A DNA stretch of 64,000 nucleotides from positions 340,803 through 404,802 of the forward strand of contig DASWXP010000002.1 of NCBI GenBank assembly GCA_036405415.1, written 5' to 3'. Made by a program: the position numbers and the translations under genes. Below, one piece after another: positions 2,966 through 45,407 of the stretch. This DNA is from Minisyncoccota bacterium. Its GTDB lineage: Bacteria; Patescibacteriota; Minisyncoccia; Phycocordibacterales; Phycocordibacteraceae. Positions within the stretch are counted from its first letter, which is position 1; every line of letters starts with the position of its first letter. A model generated the notes under the pieces. It ran no database searches, was not told the origin of the DNA, and saw only the letters and a program-made list of their open reading frames with translations.

Positions 2966-3042
2966 TGGTGTCGGGGGTGGGGAATGATCCCACGACCTTA
3001 GCGTTATGAGTGCTACGCTCTAACCAACTGAGCTACCCCGAC
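2966..3042 (-). tRNA. tRNA with CAU anticodon (elongator Met or lysidine-type Ile2), CCA encoded
   Basis: The reverse complement gives GTCGGGG acceptor paired with CCCCGAC, anticodon loop CTCATAA, then ACCA. Positions 1:72 are paired and the anticodon stem is not GC-triplet, so this is not an initiator. Confidence 0.7.
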
Positions 3043-4900: not shown

Positions 4901-6541
4901 CTAGTTCGCAGGCGTCGTAGTGCCTGTGGTTTGCGCCGTCATCGTCGCAGCGACTGCTGCGCGCGTAAGCGGACCAAAGTATCCCGTTGACGGAACACCA
5001 TGTGTTGCCTGCCACTGCTTGAGCGCGGCCTGAGTCATCGGGCCGAACCATCCAGTTGGTGCCGGGATCGCGAGAAGACCAGCGTCGATAAGCATCTGCT
5101 GGAGCGCGTTTACATCAGCGCCTGTCTTGCCGTACCAGAGGTCAACCGTGAAGTTGTAGGTCGAGGCACCAAGGACCTGGCCCTGGCCAGGCGTAACGCT
5201 ATTTACCTGACCCGTGACGCTAGCGTTAGCATTTGCGTTCGAGTTGGTGTTTACCGTGCGGCGACTGGAGCCGCTCCGGCCAGAACTGCCACCATTGTTA
5301 TCATCTTCTGGCTGAGCAATAACCGGAGCGATCGTCGCCCAGTCATGCTGTTCAGAGAGAGTCGTGTTTTCTGCAACGATACCATTGACTGTGATGATAG
5401 CCTTTGCAGGTTTCTCTGCTGACTCCCACTCGCCGAGCGTCCAGTACTCTTCAGTTCCGTACGTAAGGTTCTGCGTGATGAACGGGGTGCTGAACTGCGT
5501 CGTGTTCTGTGCAAGCAGTTCGTTTAGCTTCGCGAGATTACCCTCATTGACGGCAAGGGTGTTTCCACTCGCGTCCTGAAGTTCAACCGTGAGTTCAGTA
5601 AACGTGCTGATGTTCGACACATTGAAGCCAACATTGATACCTGTGTAGTCGGTACCTGCGTGAGTGTTGAAGTTCTCTGCATTCACAGCAGGGATGATGG
5701 ACTCCCACGCATGCTGTTCAGAAAGCGTCGTATTCTCTACCTCGATACCGTTAACGGTAATAACTGCGGTCGAAGGCTTTGCATAGGACTTCCACTCGCC
5801 GAGCGTCCAGTACTCTTCCGTTCCGTAGGTAAGGTTCTGCGTGATGAACGGGGTGCTGAGCTGAGCTGCACCATTGACGAGAAGTGGGTTGAGCTTAGCA
5901 GCTACACCCGTGTTAGTAACGATTTCATCGCCATTAGCGTCCCTGAGCTCGACCGTAACATCGTCAAGGTTTGCCATGTTCGTAACCCGGAATCCGACGT
6001 TGATGCCCTTGTAGTCAGTACCAGAATGGGTGTTGAAATTCTCAGCAGTTACACCAGGAACAATGCTTTCCCAGGTCGGCCAACTACCACCTTCGTTAAA
6101 GCTTGAGTTAGTGGTTACGAGATCGCCGTCAGCAGTACTTACGGTAATAGTAACGCTTACAGGTCGAGTATCGACACTCCATGCTGCAGGAGCAGGATTC
6201 CAATAGAGCGTGTCACCTGCCTCAGTAAAGGAACCTTCCTTTATAACGAATGGGGTCGTGAGCTGATTGGTGCCTGGTGAATTAATGATGCCAAGCACAC
6301 CAGCATTTGCTGTTTTAGTTACGCTTGAACCGTCTGCACGGTTCAAGGTTACAGTTACCGCTGTTGCGTTTGTAATATCGGTTGTACGGAAACCGACACT
6401 TATGCCCTTGTAGCTTCCATCGACGGTCACGAACTCCTCAGCATCCACCGCTGGAGCGGCATAGACGCTTACAGGAGCTATGGCTGTGAGAAGCGCGAAC
6501 GCAGAAACCATGCTCGCGAGCTTAGTAAAGGTATTAGTCAT
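4901..6541 (-). CDS. secreted repeat protein with C-terminal peptidoglycan-binding (PG_binding_1-like) domain
   Basis: Start taken at the internal ATG 6541 (MTNTFTKLASMVSAFALLTAIAPVSVYA, a signal peptide). Three ~124-aa repeats (NFNTH.GTDY.GINVGF ... STPFITQNLTYGTEEYWTLGEW). C-terminus GADVNALQQMLIDAGLL...GWFGPMTQAALKQWQ resembles a PG-binding domain. Confidence 0.65.
   Translation of the reverse strand: MTNTFTKLASMVSAFALLTAIAPVSVYAAPAVDAEEFVTVDGSYKGISVGFRTTDITNATAVTVTLNRADGSSVTKTANAGVLGIINSPGTNQLTTPFVIKEGSFTEAGDTLYWNPAPAAWSVDTRPVSVTITVSTADGDLVTTNSSFNEGGSWPTWESIVPGVTAENFNTHSGTDYKGINVGFRVTNMANLDDVTVELRDANGDEIVTNTGVAAKLNPLLVNGAAQLSTPFITQNLTYGTEEYWTLGEWKSYAKPSTAVITVNGIEVENTTLSEQHAWESIIPAVNAENFNTHAGTDYTGINVGFNVSNISTFTELTVELQDASGNTLAVNEGNLAKLNELLAQNTTQFSTPFITQNLTYGTEEYWTLGEWESAEKPAKAIITVNGIVAENTTLSEQHDWATIAPVIAQPEDDNNGGSSGRSGSSRRTVNTNSNANANASVTGQVNSVTPGQGQVLGASTYNFTVDLWYGKTGADVNALQQMLIDAGLLAIPAPTGWFGPMTQAALKQWQATHGVPSTGYFGPLTRAAVAATMTAQTTGTTTPAN
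5330..6075. repeat. two ~370-bp tandem DNA repeats inside CDS 4901..6541
   Basis: Near-identical stretches, e.g. 5417-5500 versus 5787-5870 (ctcgccgagcgtccagtactcttc.gttccgta.gtaaggttctgcgtgatgaacggggtgctga), with a 370-bp period. Confidence 0.7.
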
Positions 6542-6751
6542 AAGTTTGCCTAATAGAAGTAATCGCCCGTTATTACCCCAGGTATGCCACTGCAACCTGC
6601 CCCAGTAATACCTTCACCCTATTCTTCTCAACTCATTTGTCAATAAAAGTTTCTGTTGTGACATGATAAAAAATTCATGTTTTCTTTATGTCTATTCTGA
6701 TCACTTTCAGAGAACGATGCCGCCAGTTTGCGCATGCGGTACCATAGGTCT

Positions 6752-7846
6752 ATGAAATCCTTTAGCGCACTTCTACTTGGAGCACTTCTATTCCTTCCCT
6801 TCACAGGATTTGCTCAAGGAGTAGAAGAGCAGCGTCTCTTGAAGGCGCGTGTGCTCGAAGCCTCCCCTACCACCGAACGGGTCGTGGAAGGTACGAGCAT
6901 CGTGACCGAGACCCAGACCCTCACTATCGAGGTGCTCGAGGGCGAAGACCGGGGACGGACCGCTACCTTCGAGAACGATTTCACGCAGCTTGAGGAAGGC
7001 GACATATTCTACGTACGCCATACGGTCGGCGGATTCGATCTTGAGACCTGGGCGGTCTCAGACCCGTATCGCCTCGACGTACTCATGTGGGTGGGCCTCG
7101 CGTTCCTTGCACTAGTGTTCCTCTTCGGAGGACTCCAGGGCATCCGCGGACTCGCTTCGCTTGCCGGAAGCCTCGTGCTTATCTTCTACCTCCTCCTGCC
7201 CGGCATCTATAGCGGCGGGTCTCCAATTCTCATATCACTTGGCGTGGCAGGACTCATCATCATCGTGGGTTCCTACGTGACGCACGGCGTAAACAAGACC
7301 ACGACCGCAGCCATGCTCGGCATGCTCGCGACAATCCTCGTCACGGGCCTTGCGACCTATCTCGTTATCGGCATGGCCTCGCTCTCGGGATTCACTTCCG
7401 AGGAGAACGCGTACCTTAACTTCGCGACCAGCGGCACGCTCGACATGGTTGGCCTCCTGTTCGGCGGCATCATGATCGGTCTTCTCGGCGTCCTCTATGA
7501 CAGTGCGATTGGCCAGGCGGTCGCGGTAGAAGAGCTGTATACCGCGGGCACGAATTACACCCGCAAGCAGGTATATCTGCGCGCGCTTCGGATCGGGCGC
7601 GAGCATATCGGCGCCTTGGTTAACACGCTCGCTATCGCATACGTAGGTGCGTCGCTCCCGCTCCTGCTTCTCCTGAAGCAGTCGACGGCGAGTCCGCTCT
7701 ATCTTCTCAATAGCGAGATCTTCGCCACGGAGATCATCCGCATTCTCATGGGAAGCATCGGTGTGATACTCGCCGTGCCGATCACGACGCTCATCGCCAC
7801 ATCGCTCCTCAAGGGAACAAAGCCTTCTGGGATCCACGCGCATTAG
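6752..7846 (+). CDS. YibE/F-like multi-pass membrane protein
   Basis: ORF 6728..7846. Preferred start is ATG 6752 (MKSFSALLLGALLFLPFTGFAQG, a signal-like peptide) with aggt 8 nt upstream. Soluble N-domain followed by about 6 Gly-rich TM helices, as in the YibE/F family. Confidence 0.5.
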   Translation: MKSFSALLLGALLFLPFTGFAQGVEEQRLLKARVLEASPTTERVVEGTSIVTETQTLTIEVLEGEDRGRTATFENDFTQLEEGDIFYVRHTVGGFDLETWAVSDPYRLDVLMWVGLAFLALVFLFGGLQGIRGLASLAGSLVLIFYLLLPGIYSGGSPILISLGVAGLIIIVGSYVTHGVNKTTTAAMLGMLATILVTGLATYLVIGMASLSGFTSEENAYLNFATSGTLDMVGLLFGGIMIGLLGVLYDSAIGQAVAVEELYTAGTNYTRKQVYLRALRIGREHIGALVNTLAIAYVGASLPLLLLLKQSTASPLYLLNSEIFATEIIRILMGSIGVILAVPITTLIATSLLKGTKPSGIHAH

Positions 7847-7889
7847 CGCTTGACTCTATCCTCTGCTGGTATAGAGTGCTGGTATTACT

Positions 7890-7908
7890 AATGCAAATTA
7901 ATTGCATT
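7890..7908. promoter_or_regulatory. 19-bp AT-rich imperfect palindrome AATGCAAATTAATTGCATT (candidate Fur-family operator)
   Basis: 8 of 9 symmetric pairs. It sits 6 bp upstream of the CDF transporter ATG, in an operon that ends with a Fur-family regulator gene. Confidence 0.45.
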
Positions 7909-7913
7909 TACCC

Positions 7914-8564
7914 ATGTCACTTACCACGTTTGCTAAGAATCATCCGCTCGCGATATACGGACTCGTCTGGCTATTGAGTCTCTTCATCGTGTCGCTCGAG
8001 CTCGTGGGCTCGGGCGTCTCCGGGAGTCAGGCGCTCCTTGCGGACGTAGGACATGTCGCAAGTGATACCCTGCTCGCGCTCGTCCCGCTCGCAGCGCTCC
8101 TCTTCGTGCGCCTCGGATGGAACTACCGCAAAGTCGCGTTCGTGAGCAGCCTCGCCGCGGTAGCGATTCTCCTGTGGGTTGGCGTGCACGTAGGCGGCGA
8201 AGCATGGGAAGCGCTCATGGGAGAGGAGCATCACGACCATGAAGTTAATGGCGTATTCCTCTTCCTATTCTCAGGCGTAGCAGCGATCGCGAACCTGATC
8301 CAGCACCGCCTTCTCTCGCGCATCGATCCTGAGCATCATCATGGCGCGCACCAGGGCCTCCATTTCCATGTACTCATGGACCTCGTGAAGAACGTGGCGC
8401 TCCCGGTGCTCGGCATCCTGATCGCGCTCGAGTTCCTCCCTGACCACGCGGACCTCTGGGCAGCGCTTGTTATCGGGGTGCTTCTCATCATCCGCGCCCT
8501 CATGCTTCTATATACGACCCTCTTCCAGGAGAAGCGCCTGCATGCAGGTCATGACCACGCCTAG
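7914..8564 (+). CDS. cation diffusion facilitator (CDF) family transporter, short form lacking the C-terminal cytoplasmic domain
   Basis: Six TM helices and His-rich loops (EEHHDHE, EHHHGAHQGLHFH, HAGHDHA). ATG at 7914; the TTG at 7902 would overlap the palindrome. Confidence 0.6.
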   Translation: MSLTTFAKNHPLAIYGLVWLLSLFIVSLELVGSGVSGSQALLADVGHVASDTLLALVPLAALLFVRLGWNYRKVAFVSSLAAVAILLWVGVHVGGEAWEALMGEEHHDHEVNGVFLFLFSGVAAIANLIQHRLLSRIDPEHHHGAHQGLHFHVLMDLVKNVALPVLGILIALEFLPDHADLWAALVIGVLLIIRALMLLYTTLFQEKRLHAGHDHA

Positions 8565-8967
8565 CCACGAGCAGCTACTTCGCGATGCGGGACTGCGTGC
8601 CACGCCTGGGCGCATAGCCTTGCTCCACGCGCTCGCAAAGGAACCGAAGCCCGTACCGGTTGAGAAGCTCGCCAAGTCTCTCAAGGGGAAGCTCAACCAG
8701 GTGACCTTGTACCGAGCACTCGAGGCATTCGAGAACGCGAACATCGTGACCCGCGCAGGGCTCGGGCACGAGCACGCGCACTATGAACTTCTCCTTGACC
8801 GCCCGCATCACCACCATGCTGTATGCCGTGCCTGCGGACATGTCGAGGATATCGAGATCCCGCATTCACCTTCTCCCGAGAAGGATGCCGAACGACGCGC
8901 CAAGGGATTCGCTTCCATAGACCGCTATTCCCTTGAGTTCTTCGGGACCTGCCGCTCGTGCGCTTAG
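8542..8967 (+). CDS. Fur family transcriptional regulator (Zur/Fur/PerR-like)
   Basis: Winged-helix N-terminus (GLRATPGRIALLHAL), a C-terminal HHHAVCRACG...C..C metal site, and a His-rich patch. Overlaps the end of the CDF gene by about 23 nt (operonic). Confidence 0.75.
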   Translation: MQVMTTPSHEQLLRDAGLRATPGRIALLHALAKEPKPVPVEKLAKSLKGKLNQVTLYRALEAFENANIVTRAGLGHEHAHYELLLDRPHHHHAVCRACGHVEDIEIPHSPSPEKDAERRAKGFASIDRYSLEFFGTCRSCA

Positions 8968-16500: not shown

Positions 16501-16513
16501 TGCGTAACGCGTG

Positions 16514-16584
16514 TTGCGGGGGCCGGAATCGAACCGGCGTCTGGAGGTTATGAGCCTCCCGAGGTACCTCTCCTCTACCCCGCT
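16514..16584 (-). tRNA. tRNA-Met (CAU), initiator-like
   Basis: The reverse complement gives AGCGGGG...CCCCGCA-A: a 1:72 A-A mismatch as in the bacterial initiator (which has C1-A72), anticodon loop CTCATAA, and T-arm GCCGGTTCGATTCCGGC. Ends AACA (CCA not encoded). Close to E. coli tRNA-fMet in the acceptor and T arms. Confidence 0.7.
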
Positions 16585-39696: not shown

Positions 39697-41871
39697 ATGA
39701 AGCCTACGGACCTGCTCACCGAACACTTCACGCGCCTCAAGCCTGACCAGAAGAAAGCGCTCGAGCGCCTCGGCATCAGGACCGTTCGCGACCTCCTCTA
39801 CCACTTCCCCTCCCGCTACGAAGCATCGGGTCCGACCGGTACCATCGGCAACGTCTCGCCCGGAAGCGAGGTGACTCTATACGGCACGATCAGGAAGCCT
39901 GAAGCGAAGAAGGCATGGAAGTCGAAGCGCCCCATGGCTGAAGCCTGGCTTGAGGACGCCTCAGGTCGTATCAAGCTGCGCTGGTTCTCGCAGCCGTACA
40001 TCGCGAAGACCCTTCAGGACGGGATGGTGGTAAAAGCGAGCGGCAAGGTAACCGGGACCGAGGGCAAGGTGTACCTCGCGAATCCAGAGATAGACCGCTC
40101 TCCAGTGCCGCCAGAGGACGTGCACGAGTCACTCTTCACACAGGACGAGGCGGTGCCACTCATCGAGGATACGCTGTTTGCGATTTATCCCGAATCAAAG
40201 GGCGTTTCCTCTCTGTGGCTTTCGCACGCGGTGAAGCGCGTATTCGAATCAGGCATGCACGAGACGCTTGTTGATCCGATACCTAAAGATATGCTCGACC
40301 GGTACAGCCTCCCCACCCTCCAGACCGCGCTCATCTGGATGCACGCGCCTCGGAAGCTACCTGACGCGCAGGCCGCGCGCAAGCGCTTCGCGTTCGAAGA
40401 AGTATTTGCCATACAGCTCACGACTCAAAGACGGCGGCTCGAAGCATCCAAGGAACGAGCGCTTCCCGTGCATGCCGATCGTGATCGCCTGAACGAGTTC
40501 ATCGCGTCTTTCCCGTTCCCGCCAACCGAAGCGCAGTCTTCTTCGATCGAGCGCATCGTCTCTGACTTCGAGAAGCCGCATCCGATGCGCCGCTTGCTTG
40601 AAGGTGACGTAGGAAGCGGCAAGACCGCGGTAGCGGCCGCAACCGCCTACATGGTTGCGACCTCGAAGCCGCCCGGAAGAATTGCCGGCGCGCTCCAGGT
40701 CGCGTATATGTGCCCCACCGAGATCCTCGCGAAGCAGCACTTCTCTACCTTCGTCTCCTATTTCAAGGACCATCCGATCCCTATCGGTCTCATAACCGGT
40801 ACCGAGTGTCGGAAGTTCCCCTCGAAGGTCCGGTACGAAGAGTCCGCGAAGGTATCGCGCGCGCAGTTTGCGAAATGGGTAGCCAACGGGGAGATCCCGA
40901 TCGTGATCGGTACCCACGCGCTCGTCTATAAGTCTCTGTCGTTCCAGAACCTCGCGTACGCCATCATCGACGAGCAGCATCGCTTCGGAAAGGCACACCG
41001 CCAGAAGCTCGCGCGCAAAGGCACGGAACCCATGCCGCATCTCCTTTCCATGACCGCGACCCCTATCCCGCGTACGCTCGCCCTATCTATTTACGGAGAC
41101 CTCGACCTCTCCCTGCTCGACCAGATGCCGCTCGGTCGCAAACCCATCATCACGGAAGTCCTTGGACCCGAGAAGCGCGAGCGCGCGTACGAACGCGTGC
41201 GCGAGGAACTCAAGAAAGGACACCAGGCATATGTCATCTGCCCACGCATCAACGAACCGGACCCCTCAAAGGAATCAGCAATCCAGGCGAAGAGCGTAAA
41301 AGCGGAAGCAGAGCGCCTTTCGCGCGACATATTCCCTGACGCTGCGATAGACATCCTTCACTCGAAGATGCTTCCGAAGGACAAGGAGGACGTGATGAAG
41401 CGGTTCGAGAAGAACGAGGTACAGATACTCGTCGCGACATCCGTGGTTGAAGTGGGCGTGAACGTCCCGAACGCGACCGTGATCCTAATCGAAGGCGCCG
41501 AGCGCTTCGGGCTCGCCCAGCTGCATCAGCTGCGCGGCCGCGTCATCCGCTCATCGAATCAGGCGTATTGTTTTGCACTCCCTGAGTCGTATGGTCCAAC
41601 CACGAAGGAGCGCCTGACCGCGCTTACTACCGCAAAGAACGGATTCGAGCTTGCCGAATACGATCTCGCGCTACGCGGTGCTGGAGAGCTCTACGGAGCG
41701 AAGCAATGGGGCGTCTCAGATATCGCTATGGAAGCACTCAAGAACGTGAAGATGGTGGAAGCGGCACGTAACGAGGCGCAGGCGCTCATCGAGAAGGATC
41801 CGGAACTAAAGAAGCATCCCCTACTCGCGACACTCGCAAAGGAAGTAGACGAGGAGGTGCATCCTGAATAA
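39697..41871 (+). CDS. recG: ATP-dependent DNA helicase RecG
   Basis: N-terminal wedge/OB domain; helicase motif I DVGSGKTAVAA, DEQHRFG (DEAH-like); motifs V/VI QLHQLRGRVIRS; 724 aa. Confidence 0.85.
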   Translation: MKPTDLLTEHFTRLKPDQKKALERLGIRTVRDLLYHFPSRYEASGPTGTIGNVSPGSEVTLYGTIRKPEAKKAWKSKRPMAEAWLEDASGRIKLRWFSQPYIAKTLQDGMVVKASGKVTGTEGKVYLANPEIDRSPVPPEDVHESLFTQDEAVPLIEDTLFAIYPESKGVSSLWLSHAVKRVFESGMHETLVDPIPKDMLDRYSLPTLQTALIWMHAPRKLPDAQAARKRFAFEEVFAIQLTTQRRRLEASKERALPVHADRDRLNEFIASFPFPPTEAQSSSIERIVSDFEKPHPMRRLLEGDVGSGKTAVAAATAYMVATSKPPGRIAGALQVAYMCPTEILAKQHFSTFVSYFKDHPIPIGLITGTECRKFPSKVRYEESAKVSRAQFAKWVANGEIPIVIGTHALVYKSLSFQNLAYAIIDEQHRFGKAHRQKLARKGTEPMPHLLSMTATPIPRTLALSIYGDLDLSLLDQMPLGRKPIITEVLGPEKRERAYERVREELKKGHQAYVICPRINEPDPSKESAIQAKSVKAEAERLSRDIFPDAAIDILHSKMLPKDKEDVMKRFEKNEVQILVATSVVEVGVNVPNATVILIEGAERFGLAQLHQLRGRVIRSSNQAYCFALPESYGPTTKERLTALTTAKNGFELAEYDLALRGAGELYGAKQWGVSDIAMEALKNVKMVEAARNEAQALIEKDPELKKHPLLATLAKEVDEEVHPE

Positions 41872-41893
41872 GGGTGCGTTACAGTAGCTTAAG

Positions 41894-41970
41894 CCACCCT
41901 TAGCTCAGTTGGTTAGAGCGCGGAGCTTATACCTCCGTGGTCCTTGGTTCGAGTCCAAGAGGGTGGACCA
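41894..41970 (+). tRNA. tRNA with UAU anticodon (tRNA-Ile reading AUA), CCA encoded
   Basis: CCACCCT acceptor paired with AGGGTGG, D-arm GCTCAGTTGGTTAGAGC, anticodon stem CGGAG/CTCCG with loop CTTATAC (U33, A37), T-arm CTTGGTTCGAGTCCAAG, then ACCA. Confidence 0.65.
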
Positions 41971-42028
41971 GAAATCTGATTCTGATATAAGGAAGCTAGT
42001 CTTGGCACCTTAGGAAAGGAGACGTTCC

Positions 42029-42466
42029 ATGGACTGCACGAACTGCGGCGCATGCTGCGTCGGCCAGATCATTCCGCTCACCAAGCTCGAGCGTGGCACC
42101 ACGCCGCCTGAGCTCATGGATGGAAAAGGTAATCTGAAATCCGTCGACGGGCACTGCATCCTCTTCGATCCGAAAACTCGAAGCTGTACCGACTACGAAC
42201 ACCGACCTCAAATATGCCGCGATTTCAAAAGCGGCTGCGATCGGTGCGTCGTTATGCGGGCGTTCGGGTCAGCGCGGCTCGGCATGGGCCCTGAACCCGT
42301 ACCGACACCAGTCGCTGAAAGCGCATTCGCCGACTTCGCAGTCCGTCTTCACCTTGAAGAAGACGGCGGGCGTATCCGACGGATATCTCACCCGGAACCT
42401 GACGCAGTAACACAAGCGGCACTTCTCATTGCGAACGAGGAGCTCCGGAATGCGGAAGGATACTGA
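42029..42466 (+). CDS. YkgJ/UPF0153 family Cys-cluster (zinc/iron-chelating) protein
   Basis: N-terminal CxxCxxCC motif (MDCTNCGACC) plus downstream Cys residues. Confidence 0.55.
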   Translation: MDCTNCGACCVGQIIPLTKLERGTTPPELMDGKGNLKSVDGHCILFDPKTRSCTDYEHRPQICRDFKSGCDRCVVMRAFGSARLGMGPEPVPTPVAESAFADFAVRLHLEEDGGRIRRISHPEPDAVTQAALLIANEELRNAEGY

Positions 42467-42499
42467 AACGGCGACCCTTTTGGGCCGCCGTTTTCTCTT

Positions 42500-44446
42500 T
42501 TACTTGTGCCCTGCCCCGACCGCAGGCGCTGAGATCTCCTCTTCAGGCTCGGGCGCCTTCGGCGTGATGCCGTTGGCGATGAGGATCTTCTCGAACTCCT
42601 CGCGCTCGATGGTCTCGACCTCTACGAGCTTCTCCGCGATCGCATCGAGCGCGCCGCGGTGCTGCTCGAGCACCTCGCGCGCACGGCCCTTCGCCTCCTC
42701 GATGATGCGTGCTACTTCCGCGTCGATCTTGCCAGCAACCTCCTGCGAGTACGCAGCGTCTCCATACCGATCTGCGGCGTACGCGACCGGACCGAGCGAA
42801 TCGCTCATGCCGTAGCGCGCCACCATATCGCGCGCGAGCGCCACGATAACCGCGAGGTCGTTCGAAGGGCCCGTCGTGAGGTCGCCGAAGATCATCTCTT
42901 CTGCGACGTAGCCGCCCAAGGTTCCTGCGATATCGTCCAGGAACGACTTCCTCGACTGCATCTTCTTATCGTCAAACGGAAGCTTCAGCGTGTAGCCTGC
43001 AGCACGCCCGCGGCTGATGATAGAGATCTTGTGGATCGGATCCGCGTGCTCGAGCACGGAACCAACGAGTGCATGACCCGCTTCGTGATACGCGGTGACC
43101 CGCTTCTCTTTCTTGCCGAGGATGTGGCTCTTTCGCTCCGGACCGAGCATCACCTTCTCGATGGAGCGGATGAGATCGTACTGGGTAATCTCCTTGCGAT
43201 TCTCACGCGCAGCAAGGATCGCGCCCTCGTTCATTAAGGAATAGAGCTCAGCGCCGGAGAAGCCCGGGGTGCGCTCTGCGATAACCTCAAGGTTCACGTC
43301 AGGACCGAGCGGCTTCTTGCGCGCATGTACGCCGAGGATCTCGAGGCGGTCCTTGCGGTCCGGAAGGTCGATCGTCACGCGACGATCGAAGCGACCCGGA
43401 CGAAGAAGCGCCGGATCAAGCACGTCAGGACGGTTGGTTGCTGCCATCACGATCACCTTCTCCGTCGGATCGAAGCCGTCCATCTCAACGAGGATCTGGT
43501 TTAAGGTCTGCTCACGCTCATCATTTCCGCCGCCAATACCGGTACCGCGCACGCGCCCAACGGCATCAATCTCGTCAACGAAGATGATCGCCGGAGAAGT
43601 GCGCTTTGCCATGAGGAAGAGGTCGCGCACGCGCGACGCGCCCACGCCCACGAACATCTCCACGAACTCAGAACCTGAGATGGAGAAGAAGGGCACGCCC
43701 GCCTCGCCCGCAACCGCGCGCGCAAGCAAGGTCTTTCCGGTTCCCGGTGCGCCCATGAGTAGGATGCCCTTCGGGATACGCGCACCGATATCGAGGAACT
43801 TCTTCGGGTTCTTGAGGAAGTCCACGATCTCAAGCAACTCTTCCTTCGCTTCCTTGGCGCCTGCGACGTCCGCGAACATCACGCGCTGCGACGTGTCCGC
43901 AGGATCGATCATGCGCGCCTTTGACTGTCCGAAGGAGAACGCCTGCATACCCGCGCCTCGCACCTGGCGCGTAAGGAACCAGAAGAGTACGGCAAGGAAG
44001 ACGATCGGAAGCAGGATCGGCGCGAGGTTGAAGAACCAGTACGTGAACCCGCCTTCCTTCTCAATGGAGGCAGAGACAACGGAAAGCTGCTCCGGTGTCA
44101 CGCCGTACGCGGAGAGCGTCTCCGGGAGCGACGCTTCCGGATCCTTCATCGAGGTCTTCTTCGTGCCGTCCTGGTACGTAAGCGCCACCTCGTTGCCGCT
44201 GATCTCGAGCGCAGACACCGAGCCCGCCTTCACGTCAGCGGCTACCTGCGAAAGCGAGATCTGCTCCGGCTTCGTGCTCTCGCCCATGAGGAGCGAGTAG
44301 ATGCCGGTGAGGGCGATGAGGATAAGGACCGTCGAAATGACGTTCGCCGTGAATCCCCCACCCTTAGGCATCGGGACCTTCCCTTTCGGGAGCTTCGGGC
44401 CTCCTTTCCTTGAAGCTTTCAACGCGGGTTTTTTAGTAGGTGCCAT
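42500..44446 (-). CDS. ftsH: ATP-dependent zinc metalloprotease FtsH
   Basis: Two TM helices; AAA Walker A GAPGTGKT; SRH; zinc site HEAGHA. Confidence 0.9.
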
Positions 44447-44505: not shown

Positions 44506-44952
44506 ATGGCACCCTTGCTCGAGAATAAGAAGGTACGGCTCCGTTTCGAGTCGCTTGAGACCTTCACCGCCGGGATCGAACTCTTCGGGTTCGAGGTTAA
44601 GTCGCTGCGCGCGAGGCTCGGAAGCCTCGAGGGCTCGCGCGTCGTGGTGCGCGGCGGCGAGGCCTTCCTAACAGGCATGACCATCCCGCCGTACCAGATG
44701 GCGAACGCTCCTAAGGAGTACGACCCTGAGCGCGCACGCCGCCTTCTCCTTTCTCGCAAGGAGATCGCTGAACTCCTTGATGCAGAATCTAAGAAAGGGT
44801 TGACAGTTGTGCCTTTTGAGGTATACAATAAGGGAAGATACCTGAAGGTGCGCATCGACATCGTGCGCGGCAAGAACAAGGCTGACAGACGCGAGGACAT
44901 CAAACGTCTGGAAGCGAAGAAGGAAGCCGATCGCGCGATGCGAGAGAAATAG
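44506..44952 (+). CDS. smpB: SsrA-binding protein
   Basis: 148 aa with conserved SmpB blocks (ENKKVR..FE..E....GIEL.G.EVKS..). Confidence 0.8.
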   Translation: MAPLLENKKVRLRFESLETFTAGIELFGFEVKSLRARLGSLEGSRVVVRGGEAFLTGMTIPPYQMANAPKEYDPERARRLLLSRKEIAELLDAESKKGLTVVPFEVYNKGRYLKVRIDIVRGKNKADRREDIKRLEAKKEADRAMREK

Positions 44953-44998: not shown

Positions 44999-45407
44999 GG
45001 GGGTGACCGGCTTTGACGGTCCTGTACCTTGAGAGACGTGCGACGCGGTGGAAGTGTGCTGACCACCTAAAAACGTACACAAAAATACTTGCAAAGAACA
45101 CTCTTGCAAGCGTGAAGTCTCCGTTCACCATGAACGACTTCGCGTTCGCTTACGTACGGACGGCTTAAGCCTCCTCGCCTAAGCGACGTTCGTACTTCCC
45201 CGTTCCTTCAGGGGGAAGTACGGGCGGAATCTTCTGAAGGATAGGTATCTGCGCTCTCCCAGGCGCAGACTGAAGCGACGGGATCAGGTAGAGGCGTTTT
45301 CGTTACCGTTCCTATTCCTCTACTGAATTGCTAACGGTAACTACGCGTCGTAGACTCGCTCTTGAGACGGGATTCGGACCGGAGTTCGACTCTCCGCACC
45401 TCCACAT
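44999..45407 (+). ncRNA. ssrA: tmRNA (transfer-messenger RNA)
   Basis: Lies directly downstream of smpB. The 5-prime end GGGGGUGACCGGCUUUGACGG resembles the tmRNA consensus. The 3-prime T-arm CGGAGTTCGACTCTCCG and acceptor CACCTCC pair with the 5-prime GGGGGTG, including the G3-U70 alanine identity pair. Followed by a strong terminator. A candidate tag reading frame ends at TAA 45166-45168. Confidence 0.7.

Follow-up and report, generated by a model that had tools for sequence, protein, structure and literature searches.

Decoding of the AUA codon is a textbook case in which one modification, lysidine, switches both the codon read by a tRNA and its amino-acid identity. TilS, on which the tRNA-Ile2(CAU) route depends, is regarded as near-universal, essential and specific to bacteria, and hence as a possible drug target and phylogenetic marker; tilS is found in about 98% of annotated genomes. 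Bacterial isoleucine tRNAs with a genomically encoded UAU anticodon, tRNA-Ile(UAU), were known from nine species in 2013, when 371 unassigned TAT tDNAs were also reported from metagenomes (PMC3575796). A tRNAscan-SE 2.0 survey counted 17 bacterial genomes with such a gene (PMC8450103), and a 2026 preprint still describes bacterial tRNA-Ile(UAU) as 'rare cases'.

The best studied of these is Mycoplasma mobile (Taniguchi et al. 2013, PMC3575796), where a genomic UAU tRNA-Ile, which a C34-to-U change produced from a tRNA-Ile2-type gene, reads AUA without lysidine. The trait is confined there to a single species in a tilS-positive clade, the absence of tilS has been shown, the type 1 isoleucyl-tRNA synthetase (IleRS) carries a Trp-to-Arg change in its zinc-binding domain, and U34 is unmodified, the only bacterial case in which this has been characterised. 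Bifidobacterium and Neorickettsia (PMC3575796; counted in PMC8450103) combine a UAU tRNA-Ile, a lack of tilS established from complete genomes and a type 2 IleRS, a class proposed to accept the UAU anticodon. In the Firmicutes Lactobacillus plantarum and L. casei, a UAU tRNA-Ile and tilS coexist, which has been proposed to be an intermediate stage (PMC3575796). Outside the bacteria, UAU isoleucine tRNAs work with archaeal- or eukaryote-type IleRS: the archaea Nanoarchaeum and Korarchaeum have a tRNA-Ile3(UAU), and eukaryotes a tRNA-Ile(UAU) in which U34 and U36 become pseudouridine by an intron-dependent route. Among bacteria of the Candidate Phyla Radiation (CPR), the Saccharibacterium Southlakia epibionticum uses the lysidine system: Tn-seq found its TilS (SEML1_0730, 294 aa, PF01171) to be essential, tilS is the gene directly upstream of ftsH, the three genes annotated as tRNA-Met (SEML1_0733, SEML1_0739 and SEML1_0741) all lie no more than 6 kb from the tilS-ftsH pair, and only one tRNA-Ile is annotated (PMC10633639). 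Because of this organism, the CPR cannot be called uniformly tilS-less, and a tilS-ftsH linkage exists in the radiation.

The stretch of DNA analysed here (the window) is 64 kb long and 59% GC, and includes type IV pilus genes, a ribosomal-protein operon, ligA and gatA. Its closest RecG proteins in a collection of 5.8 billion proteins are 98% identical and, where named, are assigned to Candidatus Paceibacterota, the Parcubacteria group or the Patescibacteria group. By these names the host is an ultrasmall member of the CPR/Patescibacteria, of the Candidatus Paceibacterota, Paceibacteria (Parcubacteria) type. ARAGORN found eight RNA genes in the window. The features that concern us are the following.

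2966-3042, minus strand: CAU tRNA, elongator-like (ARAGORN, Rfam, sequence, comparison with E. coli)
16513-16584, minus strand: CAU tRNA, initiator-like (ARAGORN, Rfam, sequence)
39697-41871, plus strand: recG (Pfam RecG_wedge, DEAD, Helicase_C, RecG_dom3_C), the conserved upstream neighbour
41894-41970, plus strand: tRNA-Ile(UAU) (ARAGORN, Rfam RF00005, sequence)
42029-42466, plus strand: small CxxCxxCC (YkgJ-like) metal-binding protein (Pfam PF03692), between the tRNA and ftsH
42500-44446, minus strand: ftsH (Pfam Peptidase_M41, AAA, FtsH_ext), a conserved neighbour
44506-44952, plus strand: smpB (Pfam SmpB, synteny), divergent from ftsH
44999-45407, plus strand: tmRNA (Rfam, 115.6 bits)

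The tRNA at 41894-41970 consists of a body (41894-41967) and an encoded CCA (41968-41970). ARAGORN calls it tRNA-Ile(tat), with the anticodon TAT at gene positions 35-37 (window 41928-41930), in a loop of seven nucleotides, CUUAUAC (C32-U33-U34-A35-U36-A37-C38). Rfam RF00005 matches the body over its full length with 67.9 bits (gathering score 29, E = 1.2e-12) and flags no non-canonical pair. The features that define this family, namely a cloverleaf, a 7-nt anticodon loop, U8, G18-G19, a T-loop GTTCRA motif and U33, are all present; the discriminator is A73, the acceptor stem begins with C1-G72 and C2-G71, and the gene lacks an intron. The original prediction, that this is a tRNA with a UAU anticodon, is thus confirmed by two programs, and an 8-nt loop or a pseudogene signature, either of which might have undermined it, was looked for and found in neither case. 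An assembly error at T34 can be dismissed because the independently assembled locus L202 (GCA_036405295.1), from a related species whose RecG is 98% identical in amino acids and whose nucleotide identity is about 86-90%, likewise carries a UAU tRNA-Ile in the recG-ftsH interval; there the tRNA has the opposite orientation and other genes are inserted. The gene is genuine and expected for its lineage. The recG stop codon lies 22 nt upstream. A scan of the surroundings of the tRNA found no promoter or terminator consensus; recG and the tRNA may possibly share a transcript.

We compared the tRNA with three E. coli reference tRNAs, each verified against annotated E. coli genomes. It shares 58 matching positions with tRNA-Ile2(CAU), as against 49 with tRNA-Ile1 and 48 with elongator tRNA-Met. 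Common to the window tRNA and E. coli tRNA-Ile2 are C4-G69, C5-G68, U7-A66, the variable loop UGGUC and A73. The one defining feature of tRNA-Ile2(CAU) that is missing is C34, which is replaced by T; since the rest of the body is Ile2-like, we regard the gene as a derivative rather than a member of that family. The simplest reading of such a body is that a C34-to-U change in a tRNA-Ile2 gene with a CAU anticodon most likely gave rise to the tRNA. The isoleucine identity elements of E. coli are A73, C4-G69, U12-A23, C29-G41, A37 and A38. Measured against these elements, which were worked out with a type 1 IleRS and may not suit a type 2 enzyme, the window tRNA has A73, C4-G69, U12-A23 and A37; it departs from them in having G-C in place of C-G at 29-41 and C in place of A at position 38.

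To see how widespread the gene is, we scanned GTDB, with one genome per species, using a degenerate pattern (D-arm AGAGC, loop CTTATA, variable-loop GGTC, T-loop GTTCNANNC). The scan returned at least 120 loci, and ARAGORN called tRNA-Ile(tat) in 118 of the 120 matches listed. At least 68 of the listed loci bear CPR names, spanning Kaiser-, Adler-, Vogel-, Taylor-, Nomura-, Uhr-, Falkow-, Kuenen-, Woese-, Shapiro- and Dojkabacteria, Peribacteria, Minisyncoccia and others; at least 25 are unclassified, and the remainder belong to Planctomycetota, Chloroflexota, Dormibacterota, DPANN archaea and single other taxa. DPANN or unclassified archaea account for at least five matches of the scan. In about 40 of the listed loci ftsH flanks the UAU tRNA. 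The Minisyncoccia loci L030, L049 and L101 are among those with the gene. This sample was selected through the tRNA itself and gives no frequencies, so we drew a second one through RecG alone, ignoring the tRNA: 80 metagenome loci whose RecG is 53-91% identical to that of the window. Where at least 3 kb of sequence was available downstream of recG, 41 of 43 loci had a tRNA-Ile(tat), and all 36 loci that contained ftsH had it between recG and ftsH. As in the window, smpB is usually divergent from ftsH. A CAU tRNA occurred in none of the 80 loci. Almost all of the relatives sampled have the UAU tRNA, which makes it the rule in this CPR/Paceibacterota lineage, a lineage trait and not a one-off oddity. 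The original prediction had called a UAU tRNA-Ile rare; according to the literature this is right for cultured bacteria, but it does not apply to this lineage, given the RecG-based counts and the predominance of CPR among the listed GTDB matches.

Some of the NCBI labels on TPA_asm metagenome-assembled genomes in these samples are unreliable: genomes labelled 'uncultured Candidatus Saccharibacteria' or 'uncultured Gammaproteobacteria' have contents that do not fit. Locus L065, labelled Saccharibacteria, encodes an FtsH 83% identical to Yanofskybacteria proteins, and L012 and L095, whose labels likewise do not fit, have the Paceibacteria recG-tRNA-ftsH synteny.

We then aligned 50 syntenic copies of the tRNA (46 distinct sequences) and analysed the stems, which lie outside the search pattern. 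Across the alignment 99.4% of cells in the cloverleaf are paired, compensatory double changes occur in 16 of 21 pairs, and the covariation score is 0.788, compared with 0.179 for shuffles and at most 0.18 for slid partners. This pattern of substitution indicates selection acting on the gene as a tRNA. A single compensatory pair of the T stem separates the nearest copy, in L121, from that of the window. In every copy of the RecG-based sample the loop reads CUUAUA and then C or U (position 38), and 29 of 57 copies begin, like the window's, with C1-G72 and C2-G71.

These data bear on the idea that the tRNA is a recent phage- or island-borne AUA tRNA, or a C-to-T pseudogene of tRNA-Ile2 or tRNA-Met. 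Sporadic UAU tRNAs do occur in unrelated taxa among the listed GTDB matches (Alistipes, Actinosynnema and Virgisporangium), and among relatives of the window the genes of the recG-ftsH interval vary and the tRNA changes orientation. A mobile or decaying gene would nevertheless have to be reconciled with the same recG-ftsH location in 36 of 36 relatives, down to 53% RecG identity, with the extensive compensatory covariation and with a perfect cloverleaf scoring far above the gathering threshold. Pfam annotation, moreover, revealed no phage or integrase genes among the neighbours of the tRNA, which are recG, the CxxCxxCC protein, ftsH, smpB, tmRNA and infC-rpmI-rplT. We strongly disfavour this reading and consider it very improbable.

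The recG-ftsH interval (window 41872-42499; L202 8176-10837; also L121-L200) is a small variable spot in its own right. Between close relatives the tRNA flips its orientation and the passenger genes differ. The CxxCxxCC gene has a homologue in L121 and L199 only, other genes occupying its slot in L202, and is a variable passenger outside the conserved unit. The L202 interval holds a DHO_dh-family gene and two further ORFs, and a bestrophin-like gene lies between ftsH and smpB. Further downstream, the tmRNA of the window has a long predicted tag, AKNTLASVKSPFTMNDFAFAYVRTA*, and the tags of relatives have 20-28 residues and the form AKNTLASVKSPYFG..DFAFAYATA. Model bacteria have short tags of the ALAA type; those of the window and its relatives are longer, and several, the window's own included, do not end in LAA.

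We wondered which amino acid AUA specifies in this lineage. In alignments of RecG orthologues, 509 ATA codons stand opposite isoleucine in 54% of cases, valine in 18.5%, leucine in 12.7% and methionine in 4%; the recG of the window has seven ATA codons, and the alignment partners of both sets are mainly ATC and ATT. By this measure AUA is read as isoleucine. Reassignment of AUA, to methionine as in many mitochondria or to another amino acid, would give the UAU tRNA an identity other than isoleucine. Some CPR lineages do recode UGA, and a tRNA with U34 might in principle read AUG as well as AUA. The alignment partners of ATA, mainly isoleucine codons with valine and leucine next and methionine rarely, speak against it, however, as do the Ile2-like body with A73, C4-G69 and U12-A23 and the presence of separate elongator and initiator CAU tRNAs in the window. 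Of all the readings considered here we give this one the least credence; it is extremely unlikely.

AUA is also used freely. Across 38 genes of the window we counted 567 ATC, 109 ATA and 83 ATT codons, so that ATA makes up 14.4% of isoleucine codons, or 8.75 per 1000 codons. In a recent published survey E. coli, at 51.8% GC, has 4.9 AUA per 1000 codons, and Burkholderia cenocepacia, at 67.4% GC, has 0.6. For a genome of 59% GC the use of AUA is unusually high, which suggests that AUA is no penalised codon here.

The window also carries two CAU tRNAs, and these proved to be of the types given in the original prediction, one elongator-like and one initiator-like. The gene at 2966-3042 has G4-C69 and G5-C68 and an anticodon arm, CACUCAUAA, like that of E. 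coli tRNA-Met. Its raw identity to E. coli Met, Ile1 and Ile2 (54, 54 and 53 matches) is uninformative for its class. From these features it is most likely the elongator tRNA-Met, tRNA-Ile2(CAU) being the alternative. It has an odd T-loop, AUCAUUC, in which A54 and U58 replace the near-universal T54 and A58, and its anticodon stem ends at the bottom in an A31xC39 mismatch. Because a CAU tRNA of Patescibacteria BroJett034 (L092, 5543-5617, minus strand) also has A54 and U58, in a T-loop AUCGUUC, this loop looks like a lineage feature and not an error. The initiator-like gene at 16513-16584 has an A1xA72 mismatch and A11-U24; of the three G-C pairs that are canonical at the base of the anticodon stem it has only G30-C40 and G31-C39.

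A plain UAU anticodon raises the question of whether the organism retains TilS. With T at position 34 the window tRNA is not a TilS substrate, and the original claim of a dedicated AUA decoder that does without lysidine is borne out to the extent that the gene is a tRNA-Ile(UAU) with a genomically encoded anticodon. No ORF with a PP-loop (SGGxDS) motif exists in the 64 kb of the window, and none adjoins ftsH in the window or in any ftsH-containing locus examined. In 1.6 Mb of sampled loci of 8-14 kb each, a non-random genome sample informative mainly on the ftsH neighbourhood, there were one SGGxDS ORF (L163) and two weaker SGGKD matches away from ftsH. The L163 ORF was considered as a TilS candidate and rejected, being an unrelated, non-TilS PP-loop protein. 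The slot upstream of ftsH, held by tilS in Southlakia, is occupied in the window by smpB, and in relatives too it contains a divergent smpB and is free of tilS. Because this slot lacks tilS in the window and in every ftsH-containing locus examined, loss of tilS from the genome of the window organism is likely.

The main competitor to such a loss is redundancy, with a functional and conserved UAU tRNA working alongside TilS and a tRNA-Ile2(CAU) encoded elsewhere in the genome. The lactobacilli show that the two can coexist, a cultured CPR bacterium depends on an essential tilS, and most annotated genomes have the gene; in addition, the CAU tRNA at 2966-3042 is only most likely a tRNA-Met, and the view of the window organism's genome is 64 kb. 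Against redundancy stand the consistent absence of tilS at ftsH just described and the lack of a third CAU tRNA in the ftsH-adjoining clusters of L093, L104 and L055, in which tRNA-fMet and tRNA-Met accompany the UAU tRNA. A weaker point is that no lysidine, tilS or K04075 entry occurs in 46% of the genes of the cultured Minisyncoccus, a portion that ends before ftsH. We judge redundancy to be possible, with a chance clearly short of even. The reading we prefer, and consider reasonably probable, is that the UAU tRNA is a functional, vertically inherited AUA decoder of Paceibacterota that replaces TilS and tRNA-Ile2(CAU).

The surroundings of ftsH in other CPR groups are of interest here. In Woesebacteria (L093) and Dojkabacteria (L104 and L055) the order is tRNA-Ile(UAU), tRNA-fMet, tRNA-Met, ftsH. 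Clusters of tRNAs for the AUN box are thus found upstream of ftsH at L093 2932-7886, L104 3072-7854 and L055 1751-6695, and in Southlakia at SEML1_0729-0741, where three CAU tRNAs lie beside tilS-ftsH. These arrangements suggest an ancient neighbourhood devoted to AUN decoding in CPR bacteria. The patterns seen at ftsH, either smpB or the series UAU-fMet-Met, are what replacement at an ancestral locus would leave. In a DPANN-type archaeal metagenome-assembled genome (L046, 863-3858), tRNA-Ile(UAU) directly adjoins an isoleucyl-tRNA synthetase gene, and in another archaeal locus (L071) an IleRS-like match (59% identity over 267 aa) lies just past tRNA-Ile(UAU).

A UAU tRNA must also be charged. 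There is no ileS within the window, and we turned to its relatives. L139, whose RecG is about 75% identical, encodes an IleRS N-terminus with the motif GPPFATGLPHYGH, and the database relatives of this protein are CPR-named. The IleRS of L201 has PF00133, PF08264 and DUF5915 and no match to zf-FPG_IleRS; its best structure matches are the eukaryotic cytoplasmic, T. thermophilus and P. megaterium IleRS2 enzymes, at about 1e-130, versus 6e-49 for IleRS1. DUF5915 is likewise present in the IleRS of the cultured Minisyncoccus. By motif, domain content and structure matches the enzymes of the relatives are type 2, eukaryote-like IleRS, as are many CPR-named database proteins, and that of the window organism is presumably of the same type. 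Synthetase genes that adjoin UAU tRNAs were also tried as candidate CPR IleRS genes and set aside, the KMSKS proteins among them being ValRS, LeuRS or archaeal IleRS. The L201 enzyme is called as two overlapping ORFs (6001-8831, plus strand; 259 and 692 aa, with a 28-nt overlap), and the best 120 database matches to the CPR IleRS N-terminus are all at most 431 aa long, including entries not marked partial and from contigs of several hundred kb. The two ORFs in L201 could reflect a frameshift, an assembly artefact or a truly split gene.

Using this information, we propose how AUA may be decoded in the preferred case of a replaced TilS. U34 would pair directly with the A of AUA codons. The type 2 IleRS of the lineage, a class that may accept U34, would presumably charge tRNA-Ile(UAU), and TilS would then be unnecessary. 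TilS would have gone from its position upstream of ftsH, and probably from the genome as a whole. Misreading of AUG through U-G wobble might be avoided by a modification of U34 or by ribosomal discrimination like that of M. mobile; tRNA-Met could compete for the codon instead, or the lineage-specific loop with C32 and a pyrimidine at 38 could tune the reading. In a broader form of the proposal, tRNA-Ile(UAU) and type 2 IleRS together are a replacement at an ancestral ftsH-linked AUN-box tRNA cluster, UAU decoding is the normal mode of reading AUA for a substantial share of bacterial diversity, and the C32/pyrimidine-38 loop, the C1-G72 acceptor and the relaxed avoidance of AUA are adaptations against AUG misreading. 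We regard this broader form as about equally likely to be right or wrong.

How does the locus compare with the systems described at the outset? It resembles that of M. mobile in its genomic UAU tRNA with a tRNA-Ile2-type body, but the IleRS of the window's relatives is type 2 where that of M. mobile is an altered type 1, the trait spans a large radiation and not one species, and the absence of tilS is here deduced from the loci sampled. The closest match in mechanism is to Bifidobacterium and Neorickettsia, which have the same combination of tRNA and synthetase class and belong to other phyla; the C1-G72/C2-G71 acceptor and C38 of the window tRNA do not appear in the descriptions of these tRNAs, by which the comparison was made. 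The lactobacilli share the UAU tRNA-Ile, but they have tilS, which is missing at ftsH here. With the tRNA-Ile2(CAU)/TilS system, Southlakia included, the locus has in common the codon, the type of tRNA body and the neighbourhood of AUN-box tRNAs and ftsH; it differs by T in place of C at position 34 and by having no tilS beside ftsH. The archaeal and eukaryotic UAU tRNAs belong to other domains, and the window tRNA has no intron such as the eukaryotic pseudouridine route depends on.

The mechanism class, AUA decoding by a UAU tRNA-Ile, is therefore already known, and its spread across a CPR lineage is the main point. In the searchable literature we found no statement that Paceibacteria and many other CPR groups rely on a UAU tRNA as their standard AUA decoder, nothing relevant that links CPR/Patescibacteria with tilS, lysidine or UAU, and no description of the ftsH-linked contrast with tilS-bearing CPR bacteria. 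If a large radiation routinely uses a plain UAU tRNA, the 'rare cases', the 17 genomes and the 98% reflect culture bias. CPR genomes would then be penalised in completeness estimates whose markers include TilS, and the UAU-bearing Minisyncoccia and the tilS-bearing Southlakia would offer a natural comparison of how the ribosome and type 2 IleRS handle U34.
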